This document shows, in pieces, positions 11,967-53,591 of a DNA stretch of 64,000 bases (position 1 is its first letter; each line of letters opens with the position of its first letter). The notes beneath the pieces were generated by a model. It saw only the letters and a program-made list of their open reading frames with translations. It did not search any database and was not told the DNA's origin. Made by a program: the position numbers and the translations under genes. Source of the DNA: a bacterium. Its GTDB lineage: Bacteria; Elusimicrobiota; Elusimicrobia; UBA1565; UBA9628. The stretch lies in assembly GCA_021782205.1 (NCBI GenBank), contig JAJXVH010000009.1:3432-67431 (forward strand), in the 5' to 3' direction.

Positions 11967-11968
11967 CC

Positions 11969-34966: not shown

Positions 34967-34995
34967 TTGACAAAGCGGAGGCCGGCCGCTACACT
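34967..34995 (+). promoter_or_regulatory. Sigma70-like promoter: TTGACA, N17, TACACT
   Basis: -35 at 34967-34972, -10 at 34990-34995, ATG at 35018. Confidence 0.55.
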
Positions 34996-35017
34996 GGGCA
35001 AGTCGCGCAATTGAGCC

Positions 35018-36472: not shown

Positions 36473-36496
36473 TGCTTTAATTCAGGAGAAACCCCC

Positions 36497-39121: not shown

Positions 39122-39192
39122 GACTTTAGACCCAGGCGCGATGGAGGACGAAGAGCTATATTGACGCACAGGAAGCAGTTCTGGAGAACGCC

Positions 39193-41868
39193 ATGAAACC
39201 CCGTAGTCCCGTCATGGTGGCGGCGTGGGCGGCGGTCTGGGCGGCGTGCTTGACGCCGGGACCGGCATTCGCCGACGCGGCCGCGACGAATGTACCGACG
39301 CCGGCGTCGAAGCCGGTCGCTTCCGCCAAGAGGGCGGACGCGCCGCATGCGCTCGAGGTCCTGATCAAGAAGGGCGGTCAGGCCCAGAAGGACGTGGAGG
39401 CGGCCGTTCAGGCCCTGGTGCTGGACCCGGATAAAAAATACGCGGCCGACGACGTGCGCGCCAGCGCGGACGATGCCAAGTTGATCTCGGCCGTGGTGGA
39501 CAAATGGGTGGGAGCGGCGCCCTTGCACGCCGCGACGCTCTACTTCGTGCTGGCTTCCAAGGATCCGGCGCCGGACTGGGTCAAGAGCGACCCGACGGCG
39601 TCCAAGCTGTTCGCGCCGAGCCAATACGATCTGCCGGCGTGCCTGGCGGATCGCCTGACGACGGCGCCGAAGTCCCAGGTGGGGCTTATTCAGCAGGCGA
39701 GCTTGGCGACGTCGCTGGGTAATTTCCTGATCGCGGCGGGAACGGATGCGCAGAAGGTCCTGCTGGATTGCGGGCACAAGCGACAAATCGAAAACAGCAT
39801 CGCCGCCCACGATCAAGGGACCGTCCCGGCGCCGATGTCTCCCGGATACGACAGCGCCAACGGGGGCGGCAACGTCCTGCAGAACGCTCCGGCCAGTAGC
39901 TTCCAGAACCTCTACGTGGACGGCGCCGTCGTGGCCAACGTCTACCGCGACAAGCAGGACGGCTACCGCAAGCTGTCGATCAAAGAGTACACCGTCAAAG
40001 GGCCGGATGGGGCGCTGACCAGTCAGATCGGCGTGGTGGACATCACCGACCCGGCGCACATCTACGCGCCGGCCTTCGTGCCGATCGGCACCGGAAAGAC
40101 CACGATTTCCGTCTACGGCGGCCATGACGGCGGCGCGCCCATCACGCGCAATTATGAATTGACCGTGGGGCCCGACGGGACCATCACTTTGGCCCGCCCG
40201 AAGACCCAGGACGGTCAAGGCGGCGTGGCCAAGTTCTCGCCCGGCGAGTTGGCGACGCTGCGCGCCAATCAGGTGGCCGCGCAGGGCGGCCAGGTCAGCA
40301 TCGACGGCAAGAACTATTATGTTCTGGGCCAGGGGGGTGCGACGGGCTCCTATCTGTTCTTCGACAAGAGCATGATCGACGCCCGCGGCAACGGCGGCAA
40401 TCCGCTCCTGCTGCGTCCGGCCGCCGTCGCCGACGGCGTGGAGACCGTCGACGCGGACGGGATGTCCGTGCCCGCGTCGGGCAAGAAGCCGGACATGGGC
40501 ACGTTCTACAATCCGGCGACGGGCGCGCAGGACCCCTATCATCTGCAATTCAACCAAGCCAGCGGCCAGTGGGAGGTCAAGCCCGGACCCGGCGACCCGC
40601 CTCCAGCGCCGCCCGGCAGCAGTACCGACACGGCCCACGTGAGCGCGGCCGCCGCTGCCGGCGCGAATACGAGTACAACCGGCGGGGCCGGGGGCGCGGG
40701 CGGTCCCGCGGCGGCGGCCAGCCCCTGCGGCGCGGCGGCGTGCGGCGACTTCAAGGACGCCTACACGGGCCGCGACGGGAACGCCGATCTAGACCAGGTG
40801 GATTTGGCGAAGGTTCACATCATGAAGGACAAGAACCAGGCGAACACGTTCTACCTGGTGTTCGCCAAGGGCCTGGTCCAGGCGCACGGCCAGGCTCCGG
40901 CGGACTCGCCATTGGTGTTCGGGCCCAGCGTGCTGCCGGGCTTGATCGGGGCGCGCGGCTTGGACGATCAGATCGTTTTCGAACAGAAAAAGGGCCAGGA
41001 TTTGACCGTGTCCTACTATCCCATCAGTGCGATCCTGGCGCAATACAACGAGGGCAAGACCTTCAACCCCGCTCTATACGATACCGGCAACAACGTGATT
41101 TCCGGCGCTCCCGCCATCGATGTCGCCCTCGACGTCGTCGTGACCTACTCCCAGGGCATCACCGACGCCTCGGGCAAGCCGGTGGATTACAAGACGGCGG
41201 CCGAGGCCATCGTTGCGAATTTCAAGAAGATAGAGGCCAAGCTCGGGGACGGCGGATATATGGTCAGCGGTTCGTTGGACGGCAAGCAGACGGGAAATAA
41301 TACGTTGCGCGTGATGCCCGACGACAAGAGCCTGCCTTACTTCGAGATATGGCCTGAGGCCAAGACGGTCGCCCGCGACGCGACGTCGAGCGGCACCGGC
41401 ACGGGCACCGCGTTCCAGATGGCGGACGTCTCTACGCTGTCCGGCGACCACTCTTTCGCGCCGGGCTTCAAGCTGGCCGACGACGCGAAGAATCCGAACG
41501 CGGCCCTGTACGTGGACGACGGCGGCGACTGGTCCGTCGTCCTGCGCATGAACCGGGCCGAAGGCGGAAAGACCTATCCGGTGCGCTCGGCGAACATCCC
41601 GCTTCAGGGCGGTATCGCGCAATGGATGAAGGCCGGAGGCGTGAAGCTTCAGGGCCTGCAAGGCGTGGGTCCGGTGTCCATCAACAACTCGAAGATCGTG
41701 TTCTTCGGCGACGATACGAAGGGCGCCTACGTGGTCTACCGCGACGCCGTGCCTTCGCCCGACAACAGCAACATTCAAAACGCGAAGGCCAACTGCGCGG
41801 GCCCCGTCATCTGGCGCGGCATGAGCAAGGCCCAAGCGCAGGCCGTCTGCGTCCAGGGACATCTCTAG
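39193..41868 (+). CDS. Secreted 891-aa protein, unknown function
   Basis: Signal peptide MKPRSPVMVAAWAAVWAACLTPGPAFADAAA. Consistent coding frame; I recognise no family motif. Confidence 0.6.
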   Translation: MKPRSPVMVAAWAAVWAACLTPGPAFADAAATNVPTPASKPVASAKRADAPHALEVLIKKGGQAQKDVEAAVQALVLDPDKKYAADDVRASADDAKLISAVVDKWVGAAPLHAATLYFVLASKDPAPDWVKSDPTASKLFAPSQYDLPACLADRLTTAPKSQVGLIQQASLATSLGNFLIAAGTDAQKVLLDCGHKRQIENSIAAHDQGTVPAPMSPGYDSANGGGNVLQNAPASSFQNLYVDGAVVANVYRDKQDGYRKLSIKEYTVKGPDGALTSQIGVVDITDPAHIYAPAFVPIGTGKTTISVYGGHDGGAPITRNYELTVGPDGTITLARPKTQDGQGGVAKFSPGELATLRANQVAAQGGQVSIDGKNYYVLGQGGATGSYLFFDKSMIDARGNGGNPLLLRPAAVADGVETVDADGMSVPASGKKPDMGTFYNPATGAQDPYHLQFNQASGQWEVKPGPGDPPPAPPGSSTDTAHVSAAAAAGANTSTTGGAGGAGGPAAAASPCGAAACGDFKDAYTGRDGNADLDQVDLAKVHIMKDKNQANTFYLVFAKGLVQAHGQAPADSPLVFGPSVLPGLIGARGLDDQIVFEQKKGQDLTVSYYPISAILAQYNEGKTFNPALYDTGNNVISGAPAIDVALDVVVTYSQGITDASGKPVDYKTAAEAIVANFKKIEAKLGDGGYMVSGSLDGKQTGNNTLRVMPDDKSLPYFEIWPEAKTVARDATSSGTGTGTAFQMADVSTLSGDHSFAPGFKLADDAKNPNAALYVDDGGDWSVVLRMNRAEGGKTYPVRSANIPLQGGIAQWMKAGGVKLQGLQGVGPVSINNSKIVFFGDDTKGAYVVYRDAVPSPDNSNIQNAKANCAGPVIWRGMSKAQAQAVCVQGHL

Positions 41869-41970: not shown

Positions 41971-44900
41971 ATGAATAGGCTCGCGCGTCGTCTGTTGGCC
42001 GTCTCGGTCGCGGCGGCGTTGGCGTCCGGCTCCTGGCCGGCCGCCGCGTTTGCCGACACGACGAGTTCGGTCAGTCCGGCGCAGGCGCTGGCGCAGATGA
42101 AAGCCTGGGGCGTCTACCAAGGCGACGGCGACGTGCTCAAGAGCTATTTAGGCGACAGCCATAAACTGACGCCCATCGGCCAGGCGATTTACGACGCCTT
42201 GTCGCCGCGCGACAATCCCGTCGACGCCGCCGCGGCACTCCAGCCCACGCTTCAGACTTTGCGCGGCAACGGACCCTACACGCCGACCAGCGCCAAGGCG
42301 GCGGCCAAGCTCATCGGCACGGTCCAGCAGCAGATCGCGGGCCTGCCCGCGCCCGCCGACCCCGCCGCGGCGTCCGCGGAAGACGAGTTCCGCCGCGGCG
42401 CGTTGGCCCAGGCGGCGCTTTCGGGCGCGGCCGTCGTCGATCCGCCCAACGCCGCGTCCATGGTCCGCGTCCAGACTCCCGACGGCACCGAGTTCTACGA
42501 CAAGAAGGGCGATCTGGTCTACGTGATGAACGCCGCGCAGACCACCACCTATAACCGCGCCCTGCAGAAGCAGCAGCACGCCATGAACCAGGCGCCCCAG
42601 GTCGGCGCGCCGTTCGTGCCCGAGACGGGACGCTACAACCGGCAGATGTTCGACTATTCCTACGCGGCCGTCGACAACCAATACAACGCCCTCATGGACG
42701 GCCTGCGCCGCGACCGCATGATCGAGCTGGCCGACCTTCTGGGCAAGACCGGCCAATACCGCGACGACATGTGGTTTACCGACAAGACGCTGGAGGCCGA
42801 CCTGATCGCTCAGGCCAAGAAGAAGACCTATAGCAGCGGTGGAAAGACCTACAGCGTCTACGACATCGTCGAGGCGGATTTCCGCGCGCGCGCGAAATAC
42901 TTGGCCCAGGCGCGCGCCGACATCGACGCCTACAAGCGCGACGTGGCCGCCCTGCTGGGCTCCCTGTCCAAGAACCCGGTCGTCAGCGACGGCGCGGTCA
43001 AGAGCCTGGCGCTCGACGAGCAGGTCGCGCGCGTCGCGCTCACGCGCGCGGTGCTGGAGACCCAGGAATACTATGTCAAGAATCAGGAGAACCGCCTGGA
43101 TCCTTCGTCGCCGGACTCCAAGCAGCTGATGGACGCGCTCGAGAAGCTGAACGTCCCGCTCCAGATGAAGGTTCTCTACAAACAGCGCGGCCGGGACATG
43201 ATCGCCCAGCTTCAGCAGGTGCGCGCGCAGCTGGACCGCGTGCGGCTCTTGCTCGACAAGACCGACCCGTCCGCCAGCTTGGACACCGCCAACGCTCTGC
43301 TGACCGCCAGCCAGACCACGCTCGGCACGATCTCGACCGACTACTCCATCTACGTCGAGGTGCCCACCGTGGCCTCCCTGACCCAGGAGCAGACCGGCGT
43401 GGGCGTCGTCGACAAGGGCATCGCCTGGGCCGCGCACAAACTCGGCGCGCAGGCTCCCGGCATGAATTGGTCGTATTGGCTCTACGGCCGCGTCGACGGC
43501 GGCTATCGCGCGAACATGAACACGCTGGCGGCCGACACGCCCAAGTTCCAAGCCATCATGGGCCAGATCGCCGGCGGGGACATGGCCGGCGCTCGGCGCG
43601 CGGTCATCGCGATGAACCCCGACGCGGCCAGCACCCACTTCTCGGCCGCGCTGTTCGGCGACCAGCCCAAGCGCGTGACCGACGACGTCAAGATCGCGGC
43701 GTCCTTGACCGCCAACCGCGACCGCATCGTGTCCGTGTTCACCACGAACAAGTGGATCGACACCGGGCGCAGCCTGGTGGAGTGGAGCGTCGCCATCGGC
43801 TTGGGCGGCGGTGTGGCGGCCCGCGGCTTGACGGGACTGGCCAAGGGGCTGGACGCGACGGGCCTGACGGTCGCGGGCGAGGACGCGGGTGTGATGCGCC
43901 AGGTGCTGGCCCGGACCTCGATCATCACCCGCGAGGTCGCCCTGCACACGGCGGCGCGCTTGACCACTTTGCAGTCCGAATCGTCCTTGGCCATGACCGG
44001 CCGCATCGAGAACGGGGCCGTGCGCTACCTGGCGGAAAGCGGCGTGCGCACGCTCAACGCCGCGGCCCGTCAGGCGACCTTCACCGCCATGTCCTCGGGC
44101 ATCTCCGGCGGCTTCATGCTGGGCCAGCATCTCTATCAAGACGCGACCGGCGGCCACTCCGTCTACACCAGCGACTTGTCCGGCGCCGCGCAGGCGGTCT
44201 GGACCGGCGCCAAGGGCGGCGCGTGGTGGGCCAACGAGTCCTGGCATCCGATGCTCAACTACGTGGGCGTGCCGTCCTCGGCGTTCGCGGGAACGCGTCT
44301 GGCCGCGGCGATGGACGTTCTCGGCTCTCGCGGCGTGGTGGACACGGCGTGGAGCGGGCTGGGCGGCCTGGCCTCCTGGGTGATGCCCACGGCGGTGAAG
44401 CTGGCGGGTGAGGACTCGGCGTTGGCGGGCGCGATGACCCAGGCTAACTCCGTCCTGTGGCCGGCTGTGGAAGGCGGGGCCGGAAAAGGACTGATCGACC
44501 GACTGGCCGAGCAGGGCGTGGCCGGCAAGATCGCGGCGTTCCCGCTCAGCATGGCCGACAACGTGGCCAAATACGCCTTGGTCAGCGATGCCGCCAGCGG
44601 CATCGGCCACTGGGTCGCCTACAACGCGCCCTCGGTCAGCCTTCCGGGCGTCGGCCAAGTGACGTGGGGAAGCTCCGCCGACGTGGAAACGCGCATCAAG
44701 GGCGCCAATCAGACCGGACAGGAGCTGATGAACGCGCCCATCTGGCTGGCCCTGCCGACCTTCTCCGCGCACGCGGCGCTTGAGGCCGCGCCCTTCATGG
44801 GAGGCGCCGAAGGCATGCGCCAATACGACGCGGCCGGCCGCACACACGAGTACGCCAACGCCGAATCGGGGCAGGAACTGCCGTTTCTTGAGACGCCCAA

Positions 44901-47900
44901 GACCCCGATCTCCCAGCGCGTGTTCGACTTCCACTTCTTCCGCGATCCGCCGAACGGAAAATGGACCGTGACCGAGCAGGCCCGGCGCCAAGGCATCGAG
45001 AAGACCATGTTCGAGGCCGCCGGCGGCAAGAATGCCGATCCGCTGGTGTTCCAGAGCATCACGAAGATGGCGGACGGAGAGCTTTTCGCGCGCCGCTTGA
45101 AGGTCAACGACGAGGTCCGTCTTCTCGCGCATAAAAACTTCATCCGCGCCCTGCTAGACGACCCCGCGCGCGCCAAGGCCATACTGGAGGCCAAGCCGGG
45201 AGAGATCGTCGACGGCGTCGGAAGGATCACCCCGGAGATTCAAAAGGACGTCGCCGTCGCGCTGTATTCCTCGGACATCCAGATCGGCAAGGCGATGCCG
45301 CGGTCGCTGTCCGCCAGCGTGGACAAGGTGCTCAAGCCTTACCTGGAAGCCAATCTGATCACGCGCGAGCCCGCGCGCGAGCTGGACGCCGCCCTGCGCC
45401 GCCTCAAGCCGCGCGACGCGTTCTCCGGCGACAACGGCGTGCTGGCCAAGATTCGCGACGACGTGTCCGAGTGGCGCGTGAAGGGCGAACCCGAGGGAGT
45501 CGGCTACAAGGACTATCTTGAGGGCCTGCGCGCGCGCGTCAAGCAATGGGAGACCGACGGCACGGTCACGCCGCCGGAGGCCGACGTGCTGGCCAAGCTG
45601 GTCGACTACGTGGAGGCCATCGACCAGCGCTTCAACAGCTTCAACAGCGTGGAGAAAGCCTATGCGCTCGCCGACGAATCCCTGCAGGCCCTGATCACCG
45701 AGTTCCGCACGCGTCCGGCGCCGGCGTCCTTGCTCAACAGCTTCCAGACGAAGCTCGAGAATTGGAAAAAAGGCCGCCGTCCCGACGAGCCGGTCGCGGG
45801 CAAGACCGCCGACGGCTCCTTTGGGCGCTTGATCGCGGGCCTGCGCGAGGACCTGCAGTCCGCGCAGGGGCTGACCTCGGAAGAGCACACGAAGATCGTC
45901 CGCGCGATCGACGACATGGAGGCCTCGCCGTGGGCCCTGCACGACGCGAAGGGCACGGCGCTCAAGGGCTGGCGTCCGGAGCAGTTCGAGGCGCTGATGG
46001 GCGCCTTGACCGCGTTCGTGGCGCGGCGGCCGATGGGCTCCGTGCGCGTGTTCCAGATGCTCAAGACCGGCGGCGGCAAGACCTTCGTCGCCTTCGAGGG
46101 TCTTTTGCCGCTGGTGGAGGCTGACGCGCAGGCCACGGGCAAGAAGGTGGCGTTCCTGACGGTGCAGTCCAACCTGGAGGCCCAGGCCCGGATGGACTTC
46201 ATCGCCTACAAGAAGATCGGCTCGAAGCTGACGTTCGAGACCTACGAGAGCCTCAAGACCAAGGCCGCCGAGGGCAAGACCAAGGGCCGCAGCGCGCTGC
46301 GTGATTATTGGATCCTGGGCGACGAGATGGACGGCGCGGCCATGCAGCCCGCGCTGACCATCGGCCAGGTCTCCGGGCGCGTGTCGCGGCTGTCGCCGTT
46401 CTACGCGCGGGCCGACGCCCTGGACTTGAGCGTGCAGAGCCGGATCGATAGCGCGGCGTCTTCCCTGGGCATGCGCGCGCAGACCGCGGCGGGCCGCGCC
46501 CAACTGCTGACGGCGAACGTGCCGGGATTGGACGCGGCGGCGGTCAAGGCCGGATTCGACCGGCTGGACGAGGCTTCCGGCCGTCTGGCGCAGGCCGACG
46601 GTCCGCTGGATCGGTTCCTAGCCGAAACCGACGTGCGCGACGCCGCGGCCGGGCTTCAAGGCCTGCTGAGCTCGCCTTCGGCTTCGGGCCTGGACGCGCA
46701 GGCGCTCGCGCAGGCGCGCGGCGCGCTGAGCGACGTTACGGCCTCGCTCGACGCTCCGGCCGACGACGCGTCCTTGCGCGGCGGCGTGCTGGAGCAACTG
46801 ACCGGCAATCTGCGGCGGGAGAGCAACCTTCTTGATCTGGGCGGCGGCGAAGACGGACTTCTGCGGCTGACGCGCGACGCGGCCGTGCGTTCCGTGGAGT
46901 TGGGCGCGCGCATCGACAGCCTGAACGCGCAGGCGGACGCGGCGCAAGGCTCCTCGGCGCCGGGCGCCTCCAGCCGCGCGCAGGCCTTGCGCGACGAGGC
47001 GGCCCTGCTCGGCCGCGAGAAGGCGATGACCGACCGCTTCCAGGCGGTCGATGCGGGCCGGCGCCTGAGCGGCCTGCAGGACCGCGTGGCCGCCGCCGAG
47101 GCCGGGCCGGAGGCCCAGCGGCCCGTAGCACTTGCGGACTGGAAGGCGAAGGCCGCCGAGCTGGAAAACTCGCTGCCCGCGGACCTCCAGCCCGTCGCGC
47201 GCCGGCGGGCCGCGGCGCTGGCGCGAAGCTACGAGATCGGCGGGCGCGCGGCGGAGGTCGACGACGCGCTGATCGCCGCGCGGCGCGACGGCGGAGACAC
47301 GGCGGGACTTGAGGCGCGCAAGCAGGCCTTGGAGTCCGACTACTCGGCCGTGCGCGCCGAGGAGTCTCGCCTCAAGGGCGAGCTGGGGCGCGGCTCCGAG
47401 AGCGGGGACCTGGGCGGCCTGCTGAGGCGCATCGAGACCTTGCCGCGCGAGGGCCCCGGCGCGCGCGAGCGCGCGCGACTGATCGACAAGGCCCGCGCGC
47501 AGGTGCGCCGGAACTTGAGCGAGATCGGCGACGAGATCGCCGCGATCGTGCGCGAGGGCCAGCGCGGCTGGGAGGATCGCGCGCGCCGGCTCATGGAGGA
47601 GCGCCGCGCCTTGCTCAAGTCCTTCGCCGGCGACGAAAATCCGATGTATTCCGTGTTCCGAGCCATGAAGGAAGACATGCAGTCCTTCGCGATCAGCAAT
47701 CAGTTGCGCAGCCAGGACCCGGCCGAATATAAAGCCGCGCAGAAGCGCTTCGACAAGCTGGTCGACGGTGAGCGGCTGGGCGTGGGCGAGACGCTGAACC
47801 TGCTGTGGAGCCTTCTGCGTGGGCGCGAGCCGGACATCCCCGTGGCGCGCCTGGGCTTGACGCGCCTGCGCGCCATACAGCTGCTGCGCGCGCTGTCGGA

Positions 47901-49953
47901 AGATCCGACCATGCCCGGGCACCAGGCCGACGGGCTGTTCTGGAATTTGTTCACGTCCGCGCTGAATCCTGAGGGCCTGGGCGGACGCGGCTCCTGGGTG
48001 CGCCTGGAGCTCAAGCGACAGCTCGACGGCTTCTTCGAGGACCCGGCCGGAATCCGCCTGGACAACCGCACCGGCCGCATCAACGTCGTCCACAACGGCC
48101 AGTGGTTCGAGTCGATGGACAACGAGACGCGCCGCTATTGGGAACTGGCCTACGGCACCGACCTGACCTTGCCCTACACGCACCAGTCCATCAGCACCAT
48201 CAAGGACCTGACCACGGACAAAGAGACGAACTTCATCTCCTTCTCGGGCACGGCGGGCGACAAGCTGCGCGAGCACTTCAAGAAGAACGACATCATGATG
48301 GTGGGCCAAGGCTCCACGCCGCCGCCGAACGTGGGCGTGGAGCTGACGGCACGGCCGGTGGACAGCTATGCGCGCATCGGGCGCGCGCTGGCCGACCTGG
48401 ATTCGGCGCGCGGCCAGGTGGTGGTGCCGGACTTGAAGCAGGCGCCGCTGGAAGTGCGCGAGGCGCTGGTCGACCGCGCCGGCGGCGTTCTGCCCAAGCC
48501 GGTGGAACTGCGCTTGGACGCTTTCGCGGGCGAGGGGGCCGCCGCGGACCGGGCCTGGCTTGAGCAGCACGGCCGTTCCGCCAGCGACGGCGCGGTCGCG
48601 CTCGGCGACGTCAAGGGCGCCCCGGAGGACGTGCGCCTGGCCGCGCTCGACGCGTTGAGCGGGCCGGCGACGCTGACGTTGTCCGATTTCGCCCGGCAGG
48701 CCGAGGGCGCCGCCGCCCACGACGACCCGCGCGCCGGCGTCTACGAGAAGGCCCTGGGTCAACTGCGCGATTTGCGCGCCGGCACCGGCGACGCCGACGG
48801 CGTGGTCCTGCGCGTCGCCGCCGATGGAGCCGTCCCCGCCGATGAGATTCCCGCCGACGTCCGGCCCACGATCGACGCCTACCTGTCCAATCCGAAGTTC
48901 AAGGGCAAGGACTCCGTCGTGGTGCGCGTCTCCGACGTGCGCGGCAAGACCGCCGCGGACACCGCCGCGGCCCGCCAGTGGCTGCTGGACCTGCGCCGGA
49001 CCGTGAGCGTCAATCCCGGCGATATTCCCGAAGGCGCGCGCCCCGCGCTCGAAAAATACCTCTCCGCGCCGCGTTACAAGGGCGTCAAGGCACCCGTGGT
49101 GCGCGTGGCCGACGTGCGCGCCGGCGACGGCGTCAGCGAGGCGCAGGCCGAGGCCGCGCGCGCCTGGCTGAGGACGCAGCCCGACTCCCAGGAGTCCGGC
49201 CTGATGGTCTTGAGCGTCTCCGACACGCGCGTGCTCAAGACCGTGCGCGACTACTTGATCCGCGTGAAGGGCCTCAAGCCCGACGAGATAGCGATGGTCT
49301 TCTCGGACACCGAATATCTGCGCAACAACGTGCCCGAGGCGCGCGTGGCCGAGCAGATGAACCTGGGCGCGCTGGACACGGGCCGCGCGCGCGTCTTGAT
49401 CCTGGACACGCGCGTGGGCGGCCGCGGCCTGGACCTGAACTTCAAGGGCCAGCGCGGCAGCGCCGTGCCGGAGGCCTTCCGCGGCTACACCGATTTCGAG
49501 ATGCTGATCGTCGACCCGCACAAGATGTCCTCGGTCCACCTCCTGCAGGCCGAGGGCCGCATCGACGTGGGCCGCGTTCTGCCCAACGCCGACCGGTCCT
49601 TCTCCCTGGTCATGGACATGGACTCCGTGGCCGGCTACCGGGTGTTCCGCGACATGCTGGCCAAGGATCCGTTCTTCACTCAACTGCGCGCCGACCCGCG
49701 CTTCGTCGCCTTCGTCAAGGCGCGCGGCGGAGTTCCGGACTGGGCCGCTTGCGACGCCTACGTCCGCCTGCGCGCCGCCCAGGGCGGCGACGAGGGCGCG
49801 GCCCTGGCCGCCGACTACGCCGCCGCCGTGAAGAAAGCGCTCGACATCCAGCAGGCCCAGGTCGAGGAGGGCCAACTGCGCTCTTCCTCGGTGCTCAACG
49901 ACGGACGGCCGACCACCAACGGGCTGTTCCCCGGCATCGAAGGGCTGAAGTAG
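41971..49953 (+). CDS. Giant (2660 aa) signal-peptide protein containing a split SecA-like DEAD/SF2 ATPase motor
   Basis: Signal peptide MNRLARRLLAVSVAAALASGSWPAAAFAD. NBD1-like VFQMLKTGGGKTFVAFEGLLPLVEADAQATGKKVAFLTVQSNLEAQARMDF and YWILGDEMDGAAMQPALTIG (46040-46380). NBD2-like RVLILDTRVGGRGLDLNFKG, MLIVDPHKMSSVHLLQAEGRIDVGR, RSFSLVMDMDS (49190-49640). Confidence 0.8.
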   Translation: MNRLARRLLAVSVAAALASGSWPAAAFADTTSSVSPAQALAQMKAWGVYQGDGDVLKSYLGDSHKLTPIGQAIYDALSPRDNPVDAAAALQPTLQTLRGNGPYTPTSAKAAAKLIGTVQQQIAGLPAPADPAAASAEDEFRRGALAQAALSGAAVVDPPNAASMVRVQTPDGTEFYDKKGDLVYVMNAAQTTTYNRALQKQQHAMNQAPQVGAPFVPETGRYNRQMFDYSYAAVDNQYNALMDGLRRDRMIELADLLGKTGQYRDDMWFTDKTLEADLIAQAKKKTYSSGGKTYSVYDIVEADFRARAKYLAQARADIDAYKRDVAALLGSLSKNPVVSDGAVKSLALDEQVARVALTRAVLETQEYYVKNQENRLDPSSPDSKQLMDALEKLNVPLQMKVLYKQRGRDMIAQLQQVRAQLDRVRLLLDKTDPSASLDTANALLTASQTTLGTISTDYSIYVEVPTVASLTQEQTGVGVVDKGIAWAAHKLGAQAPGMNWSYWLYGRVDGGYRANMNTLAADTPKFQAIMGQIAGGDMAGARRAVIAMNPDAASTHFSAALFGDQPKRVTDDVKIAASLTANRDRIVSVFTTNKWIDTGRSLVEWSVAIGLGGGVAARGLTGLAKGLDATGLTVAGEDAGVMRQVLARTSIITREVALHTAARLTTLQSESSLAMTGRIENGAVRYLAESGVRTLNAAARQATFTAMSSGISGGFMLGQHLYQDATGGHSVYTSDLSGAAQAVWTGAKGGAWWANESWHPMLNYVGVPSSAFAGTRLAAAMDVLGSRGVVDTAWSGLGGLASWVMPTAVKLAGEDSALAGAMTQANSVLWPAVEGGAGKGLIDRLAEQGVAGKIAAFPLSMADNVAKYALVSDAASGIGHWVAYNAPSVSLPGVGQVTWGSSADVETRIKGANQTGQELMNAPIWLALPTFSAHAALEAAPFMGGAEGMRQYDAAGRTHEYANAESGQELPFLETPKTPISQRVFDFHFFRDPPNGKWTVTEQARRQGIEKTMFEAAGGKNADPLVFQSITKMADGELFARRLKVNDEVRLLAHKNFIRALLDDPARAKAILEAKPGEIVDGVGRITPEIQKDVAVALYSSDIQIGKAMPRSLSASVDKVLKPYLEANLITREPARELDAALRRLKPRDAFSGDNGVLAKIRDDVSEWRVKGEPEGVGYKDYLEGLRARVKQWETDGTVTPPEADVLAKLVDYVEAIDQRFNSFNSVEKAYALADESLQALITEFRTRPAPASLLNSFQTKLENWKKGRRPDEPVAGKTADGSFGRLIAGLREDLQSAQGLTSEEHTKIVRAIDDMEASPWALHDAKGTALKGWRPEQFEALMGALTAFVARRPMGSVRVFQMLKTGGGKTFVAFEGLLPLVEADAQATGKKVAFLTVQSNLEAQARMDFIAYKKIGSKLTFETYESLKTKAAEGKTKGRSALRDYWILGDEMDGAAMQPALTIGQVSGRVSRLSPFYARADALDLSVQSRIDSAASSLGMRAQTAAGRAQLLTANVPGLDAAAVKAGFDRLDEASGRLAQADGPLDRFLAETDVRDAAAGLQGLLSSPSASGLDAQALAQARGALSDVTASLDAPADDASLRGGVLEQLTGNLRRESNLLDLGGGEDGLLRLTRDAAVRSVELGARIDSLNAQADAAQGSSAPGASSRAQALRDEAALLGREKAMTDRFQAVDAGRRLSGLQDRVAAAEAGPEAQRPVALADWKAKAAELENSLPADLQPVARRRAAALARSYEIGGRAAEVDDALIAARRDGGDTAGLEARKQALESDYSAVRAEESRLKGELGRGSESGDLGGLLRRIETLPREGPGARERARLIDKARAQVRRNLSEIGDEIAAIVREGQRGWEDRARRLMEERRALLKSFAGDENPMYSVFRAMKEDMQSFAISNQLRSQDPAEYKAAQKRFDKLVDGERLGVGETLNLLWSLLRGREPDIPVARLGLTRLRAIQLLRALSEDPTMPGHQADGLFWNLFTSALNPEGLGGRGSWVRLELKRQLDGFFEDPAGIRLDNRTGRINVVHNGQWFESMDNETRRYWELAYGTDLTLPYTHQSISTIKDLTTDKETNFISFSGTAGDKLREHFKKNDIMMVGQGSTPPPNVGVELTARPVDSYARIGRALADLDSARGQVVVPDLKQAPLEVREALVDRAGGVLPKPVELRLDAFAGEGAAADRAWLEQHGRSASDGAVALGDVKGAPEDVRLAALDALSGPATLTLSDFARQAEGAAAHDDPRAGVYEKALGQLRDLRAGTGDADGVVLRVAADGAVPADEIPADVRPTIDAYLSNPKFKGKDSVVVRVSDVRGKTAADTAAARQWLLDLRRTVSVNPGDIPEGARPALEKYLSAPRYKGVKAPVVRVADVRAGDGVSEAQAEAARAWLRTQPDSQESGLMVLSVSDTRVLKTVRDYLIRVKGLKPDEIAMVFSDTEYLRNNVPEARVAEQMNLGALDTGRARVLILDTRVGGRGLDLNFKGQRGSAVPEAFRGYTDFEMLIVDPHKMSSVHLLQAEGRIDVGRVLPNADRSFSLVMDMDSVAGYRVFRDMLAKDPFFTQLRADPRFVAFVKARGGVPDWAACDAYVRLRAAQGGDEGAALAADYAAAVKKALDIQQAQVEEGQLRSSSVLNDGRPTTNGLFPGIEGLK
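48410..49190 (+). repeat. Four tandem protein-level repeats of about 55-65 aa inside the giant SecA-like ORF
   Basis: IPADVRPTIDAYLSNPKFKGKDSVVVRVSDVRGKTAADTAAARQWLLDL versus IPEGARPALEKYLSAPRYKGVKAPVVRVADVRAGDGVSEAQAEAARAWLRTQ. Two more divergent copies lie upstream (APLEVREALVDRAGG...ADRAWLEQ; APEDVRLAALDAL...). Confidence 0.5.
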
Positions 49954-50094
49954 CGCGAAGCGGCGCACTTGATTCCAGGATGGGGAGTGAACTGAGTAGG
50001 GTCAGGCGGCCGATTTCCCAATTCTACAGAATCCGTTTCTGGTTGCCGCCCCAGAATATTAACGGCGCACAATCGATTCTGCGAATGGTGTGAT

Positions 50095-50541
50095 ATGGGG
50101 GCTAAAATGGAAGTTCACGACTGGATTACAATCACCTCAGTAATAATAGCCGGCGCTGGTTGGTTCGTAAACGGTTGGCTGAGTCGCCGGCACGAGATTG
50201 CAAAGAGGCGCATGGATTTTCGTCTCAACGCCCTCTGTTCGTTTTTGCCCGTTCTGTTCGCGATCAAGGAAGATCGGACGCAGGATGATCGATTCGCAAG
50301 AGATATCGCTGCCTGTCGAACCAACTTTCAACTTTACTGTTTCGGAAATGAAGTGGAAGAATTTGAAAAACTCATCACGGCTATTGAGTCGAAGCAGCAT
50401 AAAAACTTTAAAGAGTTGCTATTGAAAGTCACGCATATGGTCAGAAACCAGGTTAGGAAGCAGCTCGGCCTGGATGAATTTATGCCAAAAAAGAGTCCAG
50501 GTGGGTCAAGTAGTTGCTCGCGATCAAGTTGCGGCTCCTGA
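50095..50541 (+). CDS. Hypothetical membrane-anchored protein in a visibly AT-richer segment
   Basis: N-terminal TM WITITSVIIAGAGWFVNGWL. Its codon usage is atypical for the window. No family recognised. Confidence 0.45.
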   Translation: MGAKMEVHDWITITSVIIAGAGWFVNGWLSRRHEIAKRRMDFRLNALCSFLPVLFAIKEDRTQDDRFARDIAACRTNFQLYCFGNEVEEFEKLITAIESKQHKNFKELLLKVTHMVRNQVRKQLGLDEFMPKKSPGGSSSCSRSSCGS

Positions 50542-50574
50542 GGCAGGCCGTGCCCCCTGAAACTTGGCCGTTGC

Positions 50575-50800
50575 GTGTTGCGACTGCTGCGCTGGATCGA
50601 TGTGCGGCGCTTCTGGGCGCTGGACGAGTCGGCGACCTTCCTGAACCACGGTTCGTTTGGCTCGTGCCCCATTCCAGTGCTCGAGGTGCAGTCCGAGCTG
50701 CGACGGAGGACGGAAGCCGAGCCGGTTCATTTTCTTGACGGCGAGCTCGAATATCTGCTCGACGCGGCGCGCGCGGCGCTGGGGAACTTCGTCGGCGCGC
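50575..50800 (+). pseudogene. N-terminal remnant of a class-V aminotransferase (isopenicillin-N-epimerase/cysteine-desulfurase-like)
   Basis: FWALDESATFLNHGSFGSCPIPVLEVQSELRRRTEAEPVHFLDGELEYLLDAARAALGNFVGA matches the family's N-terminus as I recall it. Sense is lost after about 50800, and neither the PLP-lysine region nor the rest of the fold follows. Confidence 0.55.
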
Positions 50801-50918
50801 AGATTTCGACTATCAGCATCCTATCGTTACGCCCGGTCAGCCTGGCTTGTCCTGCGGGCCGACCTGCTGAGTTCGGGACGCTCGCTTCTGAGCGAGGGGC
50901 GGCGGCGCAACGACATCG

Positions 50919-51176
50919 TTATAGGTTCCTGTACGTTCCTTCGTTGCGTCGCAAGACGCGCAGAATCGTGACCAGTTCCTCGGCATCCTGAATCGCATAC
51001 AAGACGCGCCAATCACCCACGCGTATGCGATGAAGCGCGTCCTTCAGTTTCTTGACTCCCGGCGGACGAGGATTTGATGCCAGCGCGAGGACGTGCTTCT
51101 CGATCCTGAGAAGGTCCGCTCCCTCTATCCGGTCCAAATCGCGTCGGGCGGTTTTTGCGAGGTCGACGCTATACAC
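50919..51176 (-). CDS. RelE/ParE-family type II toxin
   Basis: MYSVDLAKTARRDLDRI...NPRPPGVKKLKDALHRIRVGDWRVLYAIQDAEELVTILRVLRRNEGY-type pattern. It overlaps the upstream antitoxin gene by 8 nt. Confidence 0.8.
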   Translation of the reverse strand: MYSVDLAKTARRDLDRIEGADLLRIEKHVLALASNPRPPGVKKLKDALHRIRVGDWRVLYAIQDAEELVTILRVLRRNEGTYRNL

Positions 51177-51405
51177 GGCTCTTCGCGCGCTTGGAGAAGT
51201 ATTCCCGAGCGGAAATCGTCTTGTCCTCGACCTTGGAGTGGGTCGTCCATGCCTCGCGTGCCGCGCGCAGATCGGAGAGGTCGTCTTTGTAGAGGCGCTC
51301 CGCTGCTTCGCGTAGAAGGTCGGCCATGGAACAGCGCCGCTCGATGGCGAGATGCTTCAAATTGGCGTGAAGATCTTGGGGTAAGAAAATCGTGGTTCTA
51401 ATCAT
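51169..51405 (-). CDS. Ribbon-helix-helix (CopG-like) antitoxin
   Basis: MIRTTIFLPQDLHANLKHLAIERRCSMADLLREAAERLY. Start set at ATG 51405, since the promoter lies inside the track's longer ORF. Confidence 0.7.
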   Translation of the reverse strand: MIRTTIFLPQDLHANLKHLAIERRCSMADLLREAAERLYKDDLSDLRAAREAWTTHSKVEDKTISAREYFSKRAKSRV

Positions 51406-51411
51406 TCTGTA

Positions 51412-51440
51412 AGTATAACATATAAACATATATATGTCAA
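51412..51440 (-). promoter_or_regulatory. Sigma70 promoter (minus strand): TTGACA, N17, TATACT; ATG 6 nt downstream. The spacer contains the palindrome CATATATATG (51427-51436) and ACATATA repeats.
   Basis: The minus strand reads TTGACAtatatatgtttatatgtTATACTtacagaATG. Confidence 0.55.
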
Positions 51441-51521
51441 CGCGGGCGCGGGGCCGGGTGTCGCCGTGATTGTTGATCCGAGACCGCTTCGGATGCGGCC
51501 TTTTTCGTAGAATCGACGCCC

Positions 51522-52553
51522 ATGGACCAGCTTCGCGACGTGCGGCGGCGCCTGCTGGGGGTCGCGTCCCTGCTGGTCGCGTGCCTGATCACGGGCACGC
51601 TCGGCTACCGGCTGGTCGAGGGCTGGAGCCTGTTCGACGGGCTCTACATGACGGTGATCACTTTGGCCACGGTCGGTTACGGCGAGACGCACCCGCTGTC
51701 GACGGCCGGCCGGGCCTTCACGATGCTGTTGATCCTGGGCGGCATCGGCGTGGTCGCCTACGCTTTCTCCACGATCACGGCCATCGTCGTGGAAGGGGAA
51801 CTCACCAAGGCGCTGCGCAGGAGGCGTATGGACAAGAACATTGCCGGGCTGGAAGGGCACTTCATCGTGTGCGGCGCGGGACACACCGGCGGCGTCATCT
51901 GCGCGGAACTGCTCAAGACCGGGCGTCAGTTCGTGGTCGTCGACCGCGACGCGTCGGCCATCGACCGCCTGGTCGCGCGGCTGGGCGCGGACGTGCCGCG
52001 GCTGGTCGGCGACGGCTCCGAGGACGAGGTCCTGCGCCGCGCCGGCATCGAGCGCGCCGCGGGCGTGTTCGCGGTGCTGGCCACCGACCAGGACAACGCG
52101 TTCGTGGTCCTGAGCGCCAAGGGCCTCAACCCGAAGGCGCGCGTGCTGGCCTGCCAGAAGACCATCGGCGTGCGCGACAAGCTTCTGCGCAGCGGCGCCG
52201 ACGGCGTGGTCGACCCGGAGTTCATCGGCGGCATGCGCCTGGCCTCGGAGATGATCCGGCCGGCCACCGTTGGTTTCCTCGACGCGATGCTGCGCGAGCG
52301 CAGCGTGCACGTGCGCTTCGACGAGATCGTCGTGGGCGAAGGCTCGCCCGCCGTGGGCCGCTCCGTTGATGAGCTGCGCGGCTCGGGCGCGGGCCCGCTG
52401 CTGGTCGCGGTCGTGGCCGCGTCCTCGGATAATTACGAGATCAATCCGCCGCCGCGGCGCCTGGTGCGCGCGGGAGATCGCCTGGTGCTGATCGGCGAAA
52501 CCGCGGCGCTGCAGGCGCTGCGCGAGCGGCTGGCGCAATCCCAACACCATTAA
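51522..52553 (+). CDS. Two-TM K+ channel with cytoplasmic RCK (TrkA-N/TrkA-C) domains (MthK-like)
   Basis: Selectivity filter TLATVGYGETHP. Rossmann motif HFIVCGAGHTGGVICAELLKTGRQFVVVDRD. C-terminal TrkA-C-like region. Confidence 0.8.
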   Translation: MDQLRDVRRRLLGVASLLVACLITGTLGYRLVEGWSLFDGLYMTVITLATVGYGETHPLSTAGRAFTMLLILGGIGVVAYAFSTITAIVVEGELTKALRRRRMDKNIAGLEGHFIVCGAGHTGGVICAELLKTGRQFVVVDRDASAIDRLVARLGADVPRLVGDGSEDEVLRRAGIERAAGVFAVLATDQDNAFVVLSAKGLNPKARVLACQKTIGVRDKLLRSGADGVVDPEFIGGMRLASEMIRPATVGFLDAMLRERSVHVRFDEIVVGEGSPAVGRSVDELRGSGAGPLLVAVVAASSDNYEINPPPRRLVRAGDRLVLIGETAALQALRERLAQSQHH

Positions 52554-52564
52554 AAGCCTGGCAC
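52554..52564. repeat. 11-bp direct repeat AAGCCTGGCAC, left copy
   Basis: Sits immediately after the TAA stop of the K+ channel gene. An identical copy lies at 53493-53503. Confidence 0.5.
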
Positions 52565-52593
52565 TGGCTGAATTTATTTTGTAAGATCGCAGG

Positions 52594-53493
52594 ATGGGAA
52601 GACCGCAGAGAATACAATTCGCCGGGGCCTGCTATCTGGTCGCGCTGCAGGGCAACAATCGCCAGGACCTGTTCGTTTCCAACCAGGACCGCCGCCTGTT
52701 CCTGGCCCAACTGAAGGCCTACAAGGAACGTTTCGCTCTCAAGGTCTACGCCTACAGCCTGCTCGGCCGCTCGGCCAGCCTCCTCTTCGAGACCACGCGG
52801 CCCAACTTGTCGGCCGCCATGCAGGGCCTGAACACGCAATACACGAAGTCTTTCAACGCCGCGCACGGCACCGTCGGGCACGTGTTCCAGGGCCGCTACA
52901 AGGCCTGGGTCGTGGACAAGGACACGCACCTGGCGGAGATGACGCGCTGGGTCCACCTGGAATGCGCGCGCGAGGGCCTCTTGGACAAGCCTTGGCGCTA
53001 CCAGTGGTCGTCGTGCGCCGCCTACGTCGAGGCCCAGCACAAGGATCCCCTGGTGGACTCCGCCGCCGTCCTGCAGAATTTCGGCCACGCGCGTCTGAAG
53101 CAGTCGGTGCGCTACCTGCAATACCTCCAGGAGCGTCCGGCCTCGGCTCAAGACAGCCTGCCCGTCGTCGGCGGCGTGGCCATCGGCGGGCCCGAGTTCC
53201 TGGACCGCGTCGGCGCGTGGCGCGCCACACCGGCCCAGCGTCCCGTGCCCGTGGAGGCCGCGCGCCGGATCATCGCCGAGGTCGCCACCCGACGCGGGAT
53301 CAGCGAAGAGAAGATCCTGGGCCGCGTGCAGTGGCGCGAGGTGTCCTCCGTGCGCCGCGAGGCCGTCCACCGGGTCTGGCGCGAGACGCGCATGGGCGTG
53401 ACCGAGCTGGCGCGCCTGTTCCAGCGCACGCCCAGCGCCATCAGCCAAACCCTCCGCGCGCTGGAAGATTCGCGCCCTTCTTCAATGAATTGA
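52594..53493 (+). CDS. IS200/RAYT-like (COG1943-type) Y1-transposase homolog with a degenerate HUH motif, fused to a DnaA-C-like HTH
   Basis: The overall pattern matches the family (RPQRIQFAGACY...RQDLF...VYAYSLL...GHVFQGRYKAWVV...WRYQWSS). The expected N-H-x-H-LL is GRSASLL, and Y-I-H-x-NP is WVHLEC. C-terminal RETRMGVTELARLFQRTPSAISQTLRAL. Confidence 0.65.
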   Translation: MGRPQRIQFAGACYLVALQGNNRQDLFVSNQDRRLFLAQLKAYKERFALKVYAYSLLGRSASLLFETTRPNLSAAMQGLNTQYTKSFNAAHGTVGHVFQGRYKAWVVDKDTHLAEMTRWVHLECAREGLLDKPWRYQWSSCAAYVEAQHKDPLVDSAAVLQNFGHARLKQSVRYLQYLQERPASAQDSLPVVGGVAIGGPEFLDRVGAWRATPAQRPVPVEAARRIIAEVATRRGISEEKILGRVQWREVSSVRREAVHRVWRETRMGVTELARLFQRTPSAISQTLRALEDSRPSSMN

Positions 53494-53503
53494 AGCCTGG
53501 CAC
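53493..53503. repeat. 11-bp direct repeat AAGCCTGGCAC, right copy
   Basis: Overlaps or follows the TGA stop of the transposase-like gene. Identical to 52554-52564. Confidence 0.5.
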
Positions 53504-53591
53504 CGAGGGCCCTTAGTCCCAGGTCCCCGGGGGCCGTTTTCCCTGTCTTTTTCAGGCTTTCGGGGGCGTGCATTATTGGCGTACCGGAGCT

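Follow-up and report, generated by a model that had tools for sequence, protein, structure and literature searches.

Why should a protein that begins with a Sec signal peptide also carry an ATP-driven motor resembling SecA? This question is raised by a very large gene, here called Giant1, in a 64,000-nucleotide stretch of an Elusimicrobiota genome (the window; GenBank assembly GCA_021782205.1, contig JAJXVH010000009.1, positions 3,432 to 67,431). Giant1 occupies positions 41971-49953 of the plus strand, on which all features below lie unless otherwise stated, and encodes 2660 aa plus a stop codon, just as a first-pass annotation made from the letters alone had read it. That annotation had also described a SecA-like motor split by a single insertion of about 1000 aa at the PPXD position, and had objected that an exported ATPase makes no sense in the periplasm. 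Close homologues number 28 (1899-2969 aa, with several partial sequences), and the named ones are all Elusimicrobia; every Giant1 relative that bears a name comes from Elusimicrobiota.

The predicted signal peptide (aa 1-28, ending A-F-A/D; 41971-42054) was read off the sequence and is kept in homologues. It has a basic n-region, some 15 residues of hydrophobic core and an A-x-A motif (MNRLARRLLAVSVAAALASGSWPAAAFA followed by D), a pattern present in 22 of the 23 aligned homologues, and the hydropathy maximum of Giant1 falls in this region, in agreement with the earlier call. The conserved N-terminal region that follows (aa 29-597, 42055-43761; conservation 0.5-0.7) is predicted to be extracytoplasmic and returned zero matches in Pfam, NCBIfam and PDB searches. 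Beyond a short hydrophobic segment, an Ala/Gly-rich, weakly hydrophobic stretch (aa 625-950) and a conserved linker region (aa 951-1327), together spanning 43843-45951 and delimited by composition and conservation, are without any known domain in family searches. A profile of the whole family likewise left the N-terminal 1,300 aa unmatched in the PDB, and full-length Giant1 has no significant match in Pfam, NCBIfam, PADLOC or PDB sequences.

The C-terminal half is an intact, very divergent predicted superfamily-2 (SF2) ATPase of the SecA/DEAD-box branch, and its layout is that of SecA: lobe 1, a domain between motifs II and III, and lobe 2, with no scaffold or wing. The RecA-like lobe 1, or NBD1 (Block A, aa 1328-1482, 45952-46416; invariant residues, AlphaFold2 pLDDT ~85-95), contains WRPEQF, the Walker A motif TGGGKT (46066-46083; G1369-K1370-T1371) and DEMD (46321-46332; residues 1451-1454). 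Block B (aa 1958-2124, 47842-48342), the most highly conserved part of all Giant1, comprises in its 167 aa a domain at the PPXD position, then motif III (S2092-G-T2094, 48244-48252) in its closing part, and the strand that leads back to lobe 1. The RecA-like lobe 2, or NBD2 (Block C, aa 2400-2600, 49168-49770; invariant R, G, Q, G, R and R, pLDDT 80-92), holds motif V in VGGRGLDL (49414-49437; R2485-G2486) and motif VI in QAEGRIDVGR (49546-49575; Q2526, G2529, R2530, R2535). The NBD1 and NBD2 strings picked out in the first-pass annotation were correctly identified, since they contain Walker A and DEMD in the one case and motifs V and VI in the other, and these residues are invariant across 23 homologues, far beyond chance. 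Among 79 relatives, motifs I (GKT), II (DExD), III (SxT), V (RG) and VI (QxxGRxxR) are invariant or nearly so.

Such conservation bears directly on whether the motor still works. A degenerate, non-catalytic relic, with the motifs as remnants in a purely structural protein, would fit the lack of any significant family-model match to the motor, but this reading is very improbable: the catalytic residues (the Walker A lysine and threonine, the DE of motif II, the arginines of motif VI) stay unchanged, or almost so, in relatives down to ~22% identity, and the three motor blocks are the best-conserved stretches of Giant1.

What had been taken for one insertion at the PPXD position (aa ~1476-2406, ~930 aa) proved to be composite, consisting of Insert 1, Block B and Insert 2; there is indeed a domain between motifs II and III, but the description of an Ala/Arg/Glu coiled coil with repeats overlooked Block B and its motif III. 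Insert 1 (aa 1483-1957, 46417-47841) lies immediately past the strand following Walker B. Its 475 aa are rich in Ala, Leu and Arg and helical or coiled-coil-like in composition, its length varies from 38 to 1217 aa among relatives, and in the whole-family profile search against the PDB it drew nothing more than marginal coiled-coil-type matches. Insert 2 (aa 2125-2399, 48343-49167), recognised by self-comparison, places about four 59-aa tandem units between lobes 1 and 2. The number of repeats given earlier thus holds approximately, but the relationship is clear only for units 3 and 4, and weak for units 1 and 2. No DNA-level tandem repeat of this 59-aa period was found, the only Pfam match is to Big_9 and below threshold, and the region measures 13-364 aa in relatives. 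Compact relatives lack both expansions and have contiguous A, B and C blocks, with Block B still between motifs II and III. Their spacing from motif II to motif III, roughly 150-180 aa as estimated from block coordinates, is about that of SecA, and that of Giant1 is ~640 aa.

Fold comparison points towards SecA. The AlphaFold2 model of the insert-free motor, built on a deeper family alignment, has two lobes (pLDDT 83.4, pTM 0.73); the two halves form one two-lobe motor, the outcome that the first-pass annotation had proposed to look for. In a Foldseek search of the PDB with this model, ranks 1-13 are all SecA or SecA2 (E 1.1e-11 to 2.1e-8; TMq 0.44-0.51, and 0.50 for the SecA-SecY complex). 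The next family is MDA5, from E 2.5e-8, and DEAD-box proteins appear near 1e-6 with TMq 0.27-0.33, a difference of 3-5 orders of magnitude in E in favour of SecA. An initial model from 23 sequences (pLDDT 59.7), with which MDA5, Dicer and UvrB led the Foldseek ranking and SecA stood at rank 7, was replaced by the deeper-alignment model.

Profile alignment is less discriminating. Against a 10-sequence SecA profile, hhalign aligned the motor collinearly over SecA 57-621 (NBD1-PPXD-NBD2) with 93% probability and P 3.4e-7, compared with P 0.12-0.7 for a reversed-SecA null, and paired GGGKT with GEGKT, DEMD..TIGQVSG with DEVD..PLIISG, DNRTGR with DEHTGR, SGTAG with MTGTA, and GGRGLDL with AGRGTDI (motor first). 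The 23-sequence profile reached only P 0.0017 against the SecA alignment, and E. coli SecA on its own gave no significant alignment. At equal depth the whole motor scored about equally with SecA and DEAD-box (SecA5 58.0, DEAD5 53.3; DEAD-box P 5.5e-6). By block, Block A aligned onto SecA 57-240 with P 2.5e-5, equal to DEAD-box; Block B was placed on SecA 225-420 with P 0.03-0.05, not significant alone; and lobe 2 (Block C) scored higher with DEAD-box (43.1) than with SecA (30.8). Among single-sequence SF2 templates, UvrB, RhlE, DinG, HsdR, RecQ and RecG scored at least as high as SecA, and RapA lower.

Pfam SecA_DEAD, the search suggested by the first-pass annotation, gave no match, and neither did SecA_PP_bind or SecA_SW (Giant1 at E<=10, relatives at E<=0.1). 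The sole Pfam and NCBIfam signals are generic SF2 (ResIII and EcoAI-R-type, i.e. type I restriction R subunit), of which ResIII is weak (E 0.017 on Block A of Giant1; at threshold in the relative P0094), and HMM profiles of the individual motor blocks found nothing significant. The annotation had itself named a generic SF2 assignment as evidence against SecA, and that outcome was in part found, as these databases return generic SF2 matches and never SecA_DEAD. Furthermore, with no more than about 125 residues left beyond motif VI, there is no helical scaffold, wing or two-helix finger after lobe 2; the modelled portion (to aa 2600) forms short helices, and the short, conserved tail (aa 2601-2660, ...QLRSSSVL...FPGIEGLK; 49771-49953) contains neither a scaffold or wing nor a toxin domain. 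Because the fold matches SecA while Pfam misses, hhalign ties and scaffold and wing are absent, the Giant1 motor is SecA-like in architecture and fold, yet is no member of the SecA family. The original claim therefore survives for the two-lobe SF2 fold and its SecA/SecA2 ranking, but not as family membership.

The likeness to SecA and SecA2 thus lies in collinear SF2 motifs, the domain between motifs II and III, and the top PDB match. There are also differences from the SecA order NBD1-PPXD-NBD2-HSD-HWD: Giant1 lacks scaffold, wing and two-helix finger, adds a signal peptide, a 1,300-aa N-terminal extension and two large lineage-specific inserts, and is nearer in lobe 2 sequence to DEAD-box proteins. 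Canonical SecA is found in the cytoplasm, soluble or peripheral, and docks on SecYEG; Giant1 bears a conserved signal peptide.

Could the motor instead be a membrane-tethered nucleic-acid helicase or translocase of the DEAD-box/ResIII type, serving RNA or DNA uptake, export or defence? In that case it would look like SecA only through the ancestry that SecA and DEAD-box proteins share and through an unrelated inserted domain. Giant1 shares with such helicases WRPxQ, GKT, DExD, SxT and, as in DEAD-box proteins, RGLD in motif V and QxxGRxxR in motif VI; the ResIII and restriction-subunit signals, the lobe 2 scores and the near-equal whole-motor alignment also fit. We nevertheless regard this as unlikely. 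DEAD-box and ResIII helicases have a contiguous lobe 1 with motifs II and III ~30 residues apart, whereas at this point Giant1 has a 100-170-aa domain, which the helical insert expands to ~640 aa; it occupies SecA's position and would not be expected in DEAD-box helicases. Foldseek ranks DEAD-box folds below SecA, the DEAD and Helicase_C models do not recognise Giant1 (ResIII alone does, below threshold), and the inter-lobe repeats and signal peptide set it further apart. No nucleic-acid-binding or nuclease domain was detected in Giant1 or its gene cluster, there is no PADLOC match, and the gene context consists of envelope proteins throughout.

The location of the motor also has to be explained. 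A conserved hydrophobic segment at aa 598-624 (43762-43842; family-averaged KD 1.26) is a candidate single transmembrane helix. In Giant1 it is marginal (KD 1.2, with a charged residue within the core) and fails the Hessa-scale threshold, which it passes in the relatives P0017, P0019, P0058, P0122 and P0123; P0058, P0122, P0017 and P0019 have exactly one strong transmembrane segment between signal peptide and motor. If it crosses the membrane, this segment would place the motor in the cytoplasm. The 'exported ATPase' paradox is therefore probably resolved, because the segment is a clear transmembrane helix in several relatives and the only one between signal peptide and motor; the predicted signal peptide behind the objection is conserved, but the motor would stay inside, although the helix is marginal here. 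Distant paralogues also have transmembrane anchors C-terminal to the motor, and anchors next to the motor are marginal in Giant1 and clear in P0122, P0058 and P0109. The positive-inside rule gave no signal as a topology test.

The neighbouring genes offer a further view of the system. Five conserved upstream partner genes (31787-41868), encoding the membrane proteins w499, w569 and w484 together with w874 and w891, have collinear orthologues in two other loci, L001 and L002; w891 has a signal peptide ending AFAD. Between Giant1 and a second giant gene lie a gene for a conserved TrkA-type K+ channel (51522-52553) and one whose orthologues are annotated as Y1_Tnp (52594-53493), both 70-83% identical to their L001/L002 orthologues. 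The second giant gene, Giant2 (53592-63998), is open from 53517, extends over at least 3,469 codons if read from the ATG (53592), and runs past the end of the window; its L001/L002 orthologues have 5108 and 5256 aa. It encodes a signal peptide, an Ala/Pro-rich linker and transmembrane-like segments, and no P-loop. In all, the cluster comprises the five partner genes, the two giant genes and the two small genes between them, and encodes polytopic membrane proteins and three signal-peptide proteins. The upstream partners have no match in Pfam, NCBIfam or PADLOC, and the partner proteins and Giant2 none in the PDB or NCBIfam. The cluster is kept in L001 and L002, where Giant1 identity falls to 35%, and the pairing of Giant1 with Giant2 holds even beside a paralogue with ~26% identity to Giant1 (260-aa alignment).

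Taken together, these observations are best accounted for, in our estimate with a probability of about 45%, by Giant1 being the ATPase subunit of an envelope system specific to Elusimicrobiota, with a membrane-tethered motor acting on polypeptide. The signal peptide would be cleaved, leaving ~570 residues on the outer side of the cytoplasmic membrane; with a single crossing at the hydrophobic segment around residue 600, the remaining ~2,000 residues, motor included, would be cytoplasmic and membrane-tethered. By analogy with what has been proposed for the Omnitrophota giants, the motor may spend ATP to push or remodel polypeptide at the membrane. Likely substrates would be the giants of the cluster, either Giant1 itself or Giant2, its partner with a signal peptide, together with the toxin domain at the C-terminus of some paralogues; the conserved membrane proteins encoded upstream would be working partners of Giant1.

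The toxin enters through one paralogue, P0123 (locus L017), which has a C-terminal CdiA_C toxin (E 4.5e-20) past the conserved end of the motor and a SitI3-family immunity gene immediately after it; a Giant2 relative stands beside this toxin-tipped paralogue (41% identity over 2528 aa). In paralogues, an SSG motif equivalent to the Giant1 tail is followed by transmembrane anchors or by CdiA_C. This resemblance to polymorphic toxin systems (CdiA_C/SitI) keeps alive a reading in which the whole mature protein leaves through Sec as an exported delivery platform or effector, the motor being active only inside another, ATP-containing cell; on this view the family would represent a novel type of scaffold for polymorphic toxins or effectors. 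The conserved signal peptide with A-x-A, the lack of a convincing transmembrane helix in Giant1 on a Hessa-type scale and the variable low-GC slot after the gene are consistent with it, as are the SecA-like helicase-related domains reported in Amoebophilus effectors (PMC3482391). Giant1 differs from known polymorphic toxins in having no toxin domain or recognisable immunity gene, in containing an ATPase, and in an N-terminal trafficking part that does not resemble the scaffolds of TPS, Rhs, LXG or lipoprotein SitA. The effector reading is doubtful. In the clade of the window, Giant1 has a conserved, non-polymorphic C-terminus with no toxin domain. The one strong transmembrane segment before the motor and the anchors after it in relatives fit a cytoplasmic tethered motor, and neither the scanned genes of the window nor the 10-kb flanks at two homologue loci yielded any known delivery machinery (T5SS, T6SS, T7SS).

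A bolder form of the tethered-motor reading can be put forward, though we think it improbable as a whole. The cluster could be an unrecognised Elusimicrobiota-specific translocation or toxin-delivery system, independent of SecYEG, in which a tethered motor, derived from SecA and fused to an N-terminal domain that is itself exported, exports Giant2 and, in some paralogues, a CdiA_C toxin through a channel formed by the upstream membrane proteins.

The closest precedent is found in other phyla. Giant proteins of Omnitrophota and Actinobacteriota have SecA-like domains without scaffold or wing beside transmembrane anchors, and it has been proposed that these domains drive export of the giants that contain them (West-Roberts et al., 2023, bioRxiv 10.1101/2023.11.21.568195). 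Giant1 resembles them in having a SecA-type motor with a domain at the preprotein-binding position and no scaffold or wing towards the C-terminus of a very large envelope-associated protein, and in the T2SS/Tad-like genes of the wider neighbourhood. However, those giants, likened to Giant1 here by their description, exceed 30,000 aa, with many transmembrane helices, carbohydrate-active domains and SecA-like domains detectable with Pfam SecA_DEAD, whereas Giant1 has 2,660 aa, at most one marginal transmembrane helix, no recognisable accessory domain and a motor that SecA_DEAD misses, and belongs to another phylum. A SecA-like motor without scaffold and wing in giant proteins is thus already known, and Inserts 1 and 2 are an expansion in the Giant1 lineage.

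The known pairing of SecA-like motors with giant envelope proteins reaches a third phylum and a much smaller, differently built protein. A SecA-type motor architecture can survive undetected by Pfam, NCBIfam and HMM-versus-PDB searches, and that of Giant1 was recovered only through a deep family alignment and structure prediction. Furthermore, a conserved cluster without annotated function is now defined in a poorly known phylum, and P0123 ties the Giant1-type scaffold to polymorphic toxin delivery. If the motor does export its own giant or the partner, the export of multi-thousand-residue proteins would become testable in a compact system.

Several other features of the neighbourhood were considered. 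Tad-like genes in the window (5958-10605), whose co-occurrence with such giants had been suggested for a survey, are 30 kb distant and do not recur within 10 kb at two homologue loci; a functional link was rejected. Upstream, three membrane proteins (550, 499 and 569 aa) are alike in architecture, but share no BLAST similarity and were not accepted as paralogues, and minus-strand ORFs at 53148-63242 were dismissed as antisense to Giant2. The 148-aa gene downstream of Giant1 has no family match.

Giant1, the 2660-aa protein encoded by a single plus-strand ORF at 41971-49953, is most likely a membrane-tethered, SecA-derived polypeptide motor, which would serve specifically the giant proteins encoded in the conserved cluster around it. 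The NBD1- and NBD2-like motif strings quoted in a first-pass annotation are present in the protein and contain Walker A (G1369-K1370-T1371), DEMD (1451-1454), motif V (R2485-G2486) and motif VI (Q2526, G2529, R2530 and R2535), and all of these motif residues are invariant across 23 homologues. A 79-sequence alignment extending to ~22% identity shows no substitution at R2485, G2486, Q2526 or R2530, and the remaining motif residues are at least 90% conserved. The profile search for SecA_DEAD proposed in that annotation returned only generic SF2 matches in Giant1, namely ResIII (full-length protein, E 0.017, aa 1335-1426) and the EcoAI R subunit, all sub-threshold; ResIII reaches 22.7 bits in the compact relative P0094, just over its gathering score of 22.5. 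SecA_DEAD, SecA_PP_bind and SecA_SW were never matched in Giant1 or the relatives searched, and PDB sequences searched by phmmer and block HMMs gave no match for Giant1.

Conservation along Giant1 forms three peaks: block A (lobe 1, aa 1328-1482), block B (the PPXD-position domain and motif III, aa 1958-2124) and block C (lobe 2, aa 2400-2600). The highest peak is block B, around NVVHNGQWFESMDNETRR...LTLPYTH...FISFSGTAG, at the end of which motif III (S2092-x-T2094) is nearly invariant in the 79-sequence alignment. Using HMMs, the blocks were located on 121 relatives, and in compact ones (P0091, P0093, P0094, P0058, P0037 and P0102) the A-B gap is only 38-85 aa and the B-C gap 13-25 aa, compared with maxima of 1217 and 364 aa among the others. 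These small gaps indicate that the ancestral motor was a contiguous A-B-C unit, in which a domain of ~100-170 aa lies between motifs II and III, and to which the Giant1 lineage has added two expansions. Expansion 1 (aa 1483-1957, 475 aa) is Ala/Leu/Arg-rich and, judged by composition, helical, with no more than marginal coiled-coil-type matches in the PDB, and expansion 2 (aa 2125-2399) consists of approximately four tandem 59-aa units. What had been described as one insertion between the lobes is therefore three pieces: expansion 1, block B and expansion 2. Among the four tandem repeats also described there, the relationship is clear between units 3 and 4 but weak between units 1 and 2; no DNA-level repeat of the 59-aa period was found.

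Structure prediction of the two-lobe motor was another check suggested by the annotation. An initial AF2 model of the insert-free composite motor, built on 23 sequences, had a poor pLDDT (59.7), and a second model, from a 40-row alignment including distant relatives supplied by an exhaustive HMMER search, was confident (pLDDT 83.4, pTM 0.73). Foldseek ranks 1-13 against the PDB were all SecA or SecA2, such as B. subtilis SecA (1tf2, E 1.1e-11), the SecA-SecY complexes 5eul and 3dl8 (TMq 0.50-0.51) and C. difficile SecA2 (6t4h). MDA5 followed from rank 14 (E 2.5e-8, TMq ~0.35), and DEAD-box proteins were listed with E near 1e-6 and TMq 0.27-0.33. Giant1 has only ~125 residues beyond motif VI, and since the modelled portion of these is predicted to form short helices, the SecA scaffold, wing and two-helix finger are absent.

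Profile-profile comparison used ten SecA/SecA2 sequences, each verified against annotated records. A 59-sequence motor alignment matched this profile collinearly with SecA 57-621 (93% probability, P 3.4e-7, 452 columns), compared with P 0.12-0.7 for a reversed SecA control. Each block was also collinear on its own: A with SecA 57-240 (P 2.5e-5), C with 443-621 (P 0.02) and B with 225-420, at a P of 0.03-0.05 that is not significant by itself. Giant1 may alternatively be a membrane-tethered nucleic-acid helicase. Several control comparisons set limits to the SecA reading: single-sequence templates of UvrB, RhlE, DinG, HsdR, RecQ and RecG gave 33.7-37.5 versus 27-32 for single SecA/SecA2 sequences, and lobe 2 alone is nearer DEAD-box proteins (43.1 versus 30.8 for SecA). 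At equal depth (five sequences per profile, pairwise identity 31-55% and 33-39%), the whole motor gave 58.0 with SecA (P 3.5e-6, 458 columns) and 53.3 with E. coli DEAD-box helicases (P 5.5e-6, 352 columns), two profiles that match each other at P 4.6e-10. The motor is placed in the SecA/DEAD-box branch of SF2, and what makes it specifically SecA-like is its architecture, where a domain separates motif II from motif III, and its fold-level ranking rather than any sequence-profile preference. The initial SecA-like reading stands for architecture and fold but not for profile specificity or family membership; the motor resembles the SecA core in look and predicted working yet lies outside the SecA family.

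The Giant1 N-terminus, MNRLARRLLAVSVAAALASGSWPAAAFA followed by D, combines a basic n-region with a hydrophobic core of ~15 residues and an A-x-A site, and it forms the strongest hydropathy peak of the protein. This pattern is kept in 22 of 23 aligned homologues, and the Sec signal peptide recognised at first reading is predicted from these sequence features. The sole conserved hydrophobic segment after it is aa 598-624 (family-averaged KD 1.26). In P0017, P0019, P0058, P0122 and P0123, the equivalent segment passes a Hessa-type TM threshold and is the only one to do so between the N-terminus and the motor, and more distant paralogues carry C-terminal TM anchors beyond the motor. These features favour a topology in which the signal peptide is cleaved, ~570 aa lie outside and a single TM helix tethers a cytoplasmic motor. 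In Giant1 itself, however, aa 598-624 fails the threshold, with a hydrophobic run of ~14-17 residues and charged residues in the 21-residue core, and the positive-inside test is flat (K+R 31 versus 33 across the flanks). About two-thirds of the weight is given to a cytoplasmic motor, in which case the paradox of an exported ATPase raised by the annotation would vanish.

Giant1 may also be an exported effector or toxin-delivery platform. P0123, a distant paralogue at locus L017 that is truncated at a contig end and aligns with Giant1 over 260 aa at ~26% identity, has a Giant1-type motor, then a Pro/Ala linker and finally a CdiA_C toxin domain (E 4.5e-20); this layout indicates that a Giant1-type scaffold is able to carry a polymorphic toxin. 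Directly 3' lie a 139-aa SitI3-family gene (27-6677 of L017 spans P0123 and this neighbour) and a homologue of Giant2, the second giant gene of the window (41% identity over 2528 aa). P0123 is thus a putative polymorphic toxin on an ATPase-containing scaffold, with the SitI3-family gene as its predicted immunity gene, and the adjacent Giant2 homologue argues that the Giant1-type/Giant2 pairing is ancient. Compact relatives are also modular: P0093 has its motor fused to an AAA_5 (MoxR/dynein-type) ATPase domain (aa ~1059-1153), and P0094 has a 1,687-aa tail (aa 1256-2942) with kinase-like and peptidase-like motifs by eye and no Pfam match. Furthermore, effector modules of Amoebophilus include SecA-like helicase-related domains (Zhang et al., 2012, PMC3482391).

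Giant1 fits into an emerging class of giant proteins with SecA-like motors. Giant proteins of Omnitrophota and some Actinobacteriota contain divergent SecA_DEAD and preprotein-binding domains, lacking scaffold and wing and lying beside TM anchors, for which export of giant or accessory proteins has been proposed (West-Roberts et al., 2023, bioRxiv 10.1101/2023.11.21.568195). In comparison, Giant1 comes from another phylum and is approximately ten times smaller, its motor is undetected by Pfam SecA models and split by two lineage-specific expansions, and its family has toxin-tipped paralogues. A word-indexed search gave 28 homologues (1899-2969 aa, several partial), the named ones all from Elusimicrobia MAGs, and 97 relatives came from searching 1.84 billion cluster representatives exhaustively; organism-level names retrieved for distant or compact relatives were Elusimicrobiota in every case. 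Scanning 185,579 species-representative genomes with two exact peptide patterns gave a lower bound of 32 loci, of which 29 carry the label Elusimicrobia or Elusimicrobiota (among them a complete 3.8-Mb chromosome and an entry labelled Ca. Endomicrobium) and three just 'bacterium'. No publication on this Elusimicrobiota family came up in a literature search.

Giant1 ends a run of same-strand genes, named here by length in aa (w550, w499, w569 and w484, which encode membrane proteins, then w874 and w891), for which Pfam, NCBIfam and PADLOC searches gave no match; the w891 signal peptide ends in AFAD, as does that of Giant1. On the downstream side, a variable low-GC slot is followed by a TrkA-type K+ channel gene and by a 299-aa gene with a weak DnaA_C HTH match, which is an orthologue of Y1_Tnp-annotated genes (the two genes lie within 51522-53493, plus strand), and then by Giant2. 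The order w499-w569-w484-w874-w891-Giant1-TrkA-Y1-Giant2 is collinear at two homologue loci, where Giant1 identity is 67% and 35%. Giant2 is open on the plus strand from 53517 to 63998, off the window end (at least 3494 codons, likely start ATG 53592; orthologues 5108-5256 aa), and combines a signal peptide with an Ala/Pro-rich linker and several TM-like segments, without a P-loop or family match. The cluster merits attention because it is functionally dark as a whole, phylum-restricted and open to experiment.

The slot after Giant1 (50001-52000, GC 0.59 versus ~0.70 around) looks like a variable cassette site. It holds a 148-aa membrane-protein gene (50095-50541) whose homologue is absent from the loci L001 and L002, a Wzy_C gene in L002 and a SitI3 gene in L017. 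The TrkA/Y1_Tnp-orthologous pair shows 70-83% identity in distant loci, and these are odd companions for synteny. Long minus-strand ORFs opposite Giant2 in high-GC DNA (53148-57932, 57990-59105, 59457-60581 and 60681-63242; up to 1594 aa) are almost certainly artefacts, with Arg-rich N-termini and no matches. Directly upstream of the dark cluster are genes for an FtsH-like AAA+/M41 protease and a membrane-anchored Ser/Thr kinase (26158-28845, plus strand).

T2SS-like genes have been reported close to giant Omnitrophota genes (bioRxiv 10.1101/2023.11.21.568195). In the window, Tad/T2SS-like genes (5958-13093, plus strand) encode a 1245-aa protein whose C-terminal domain is T2SSF, a 302-aa T2SSF protein and a TPR protein. 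Their distance from Giant1 is 30 kb, and none turned up within 10 kb of either of two homologue loci, so the co-occurrence with Tad loci that the annotation proposed to check was not borne out there. A 767-aa protein (7-2310, plus strand) has FlgD_ig-like repeats and a weak match to CHU_C, a type IX secretion sorting signal. A separate polymorphic-toxin-like gene ~18 kb upstream of Giant1 (21046-23994, plus strand) encodes a 982-aa protein with a C-terminal CdiA-CT RNase A-type toxin domain (E 9.8e-19) and weak trypsin-like and Big_1 signals.
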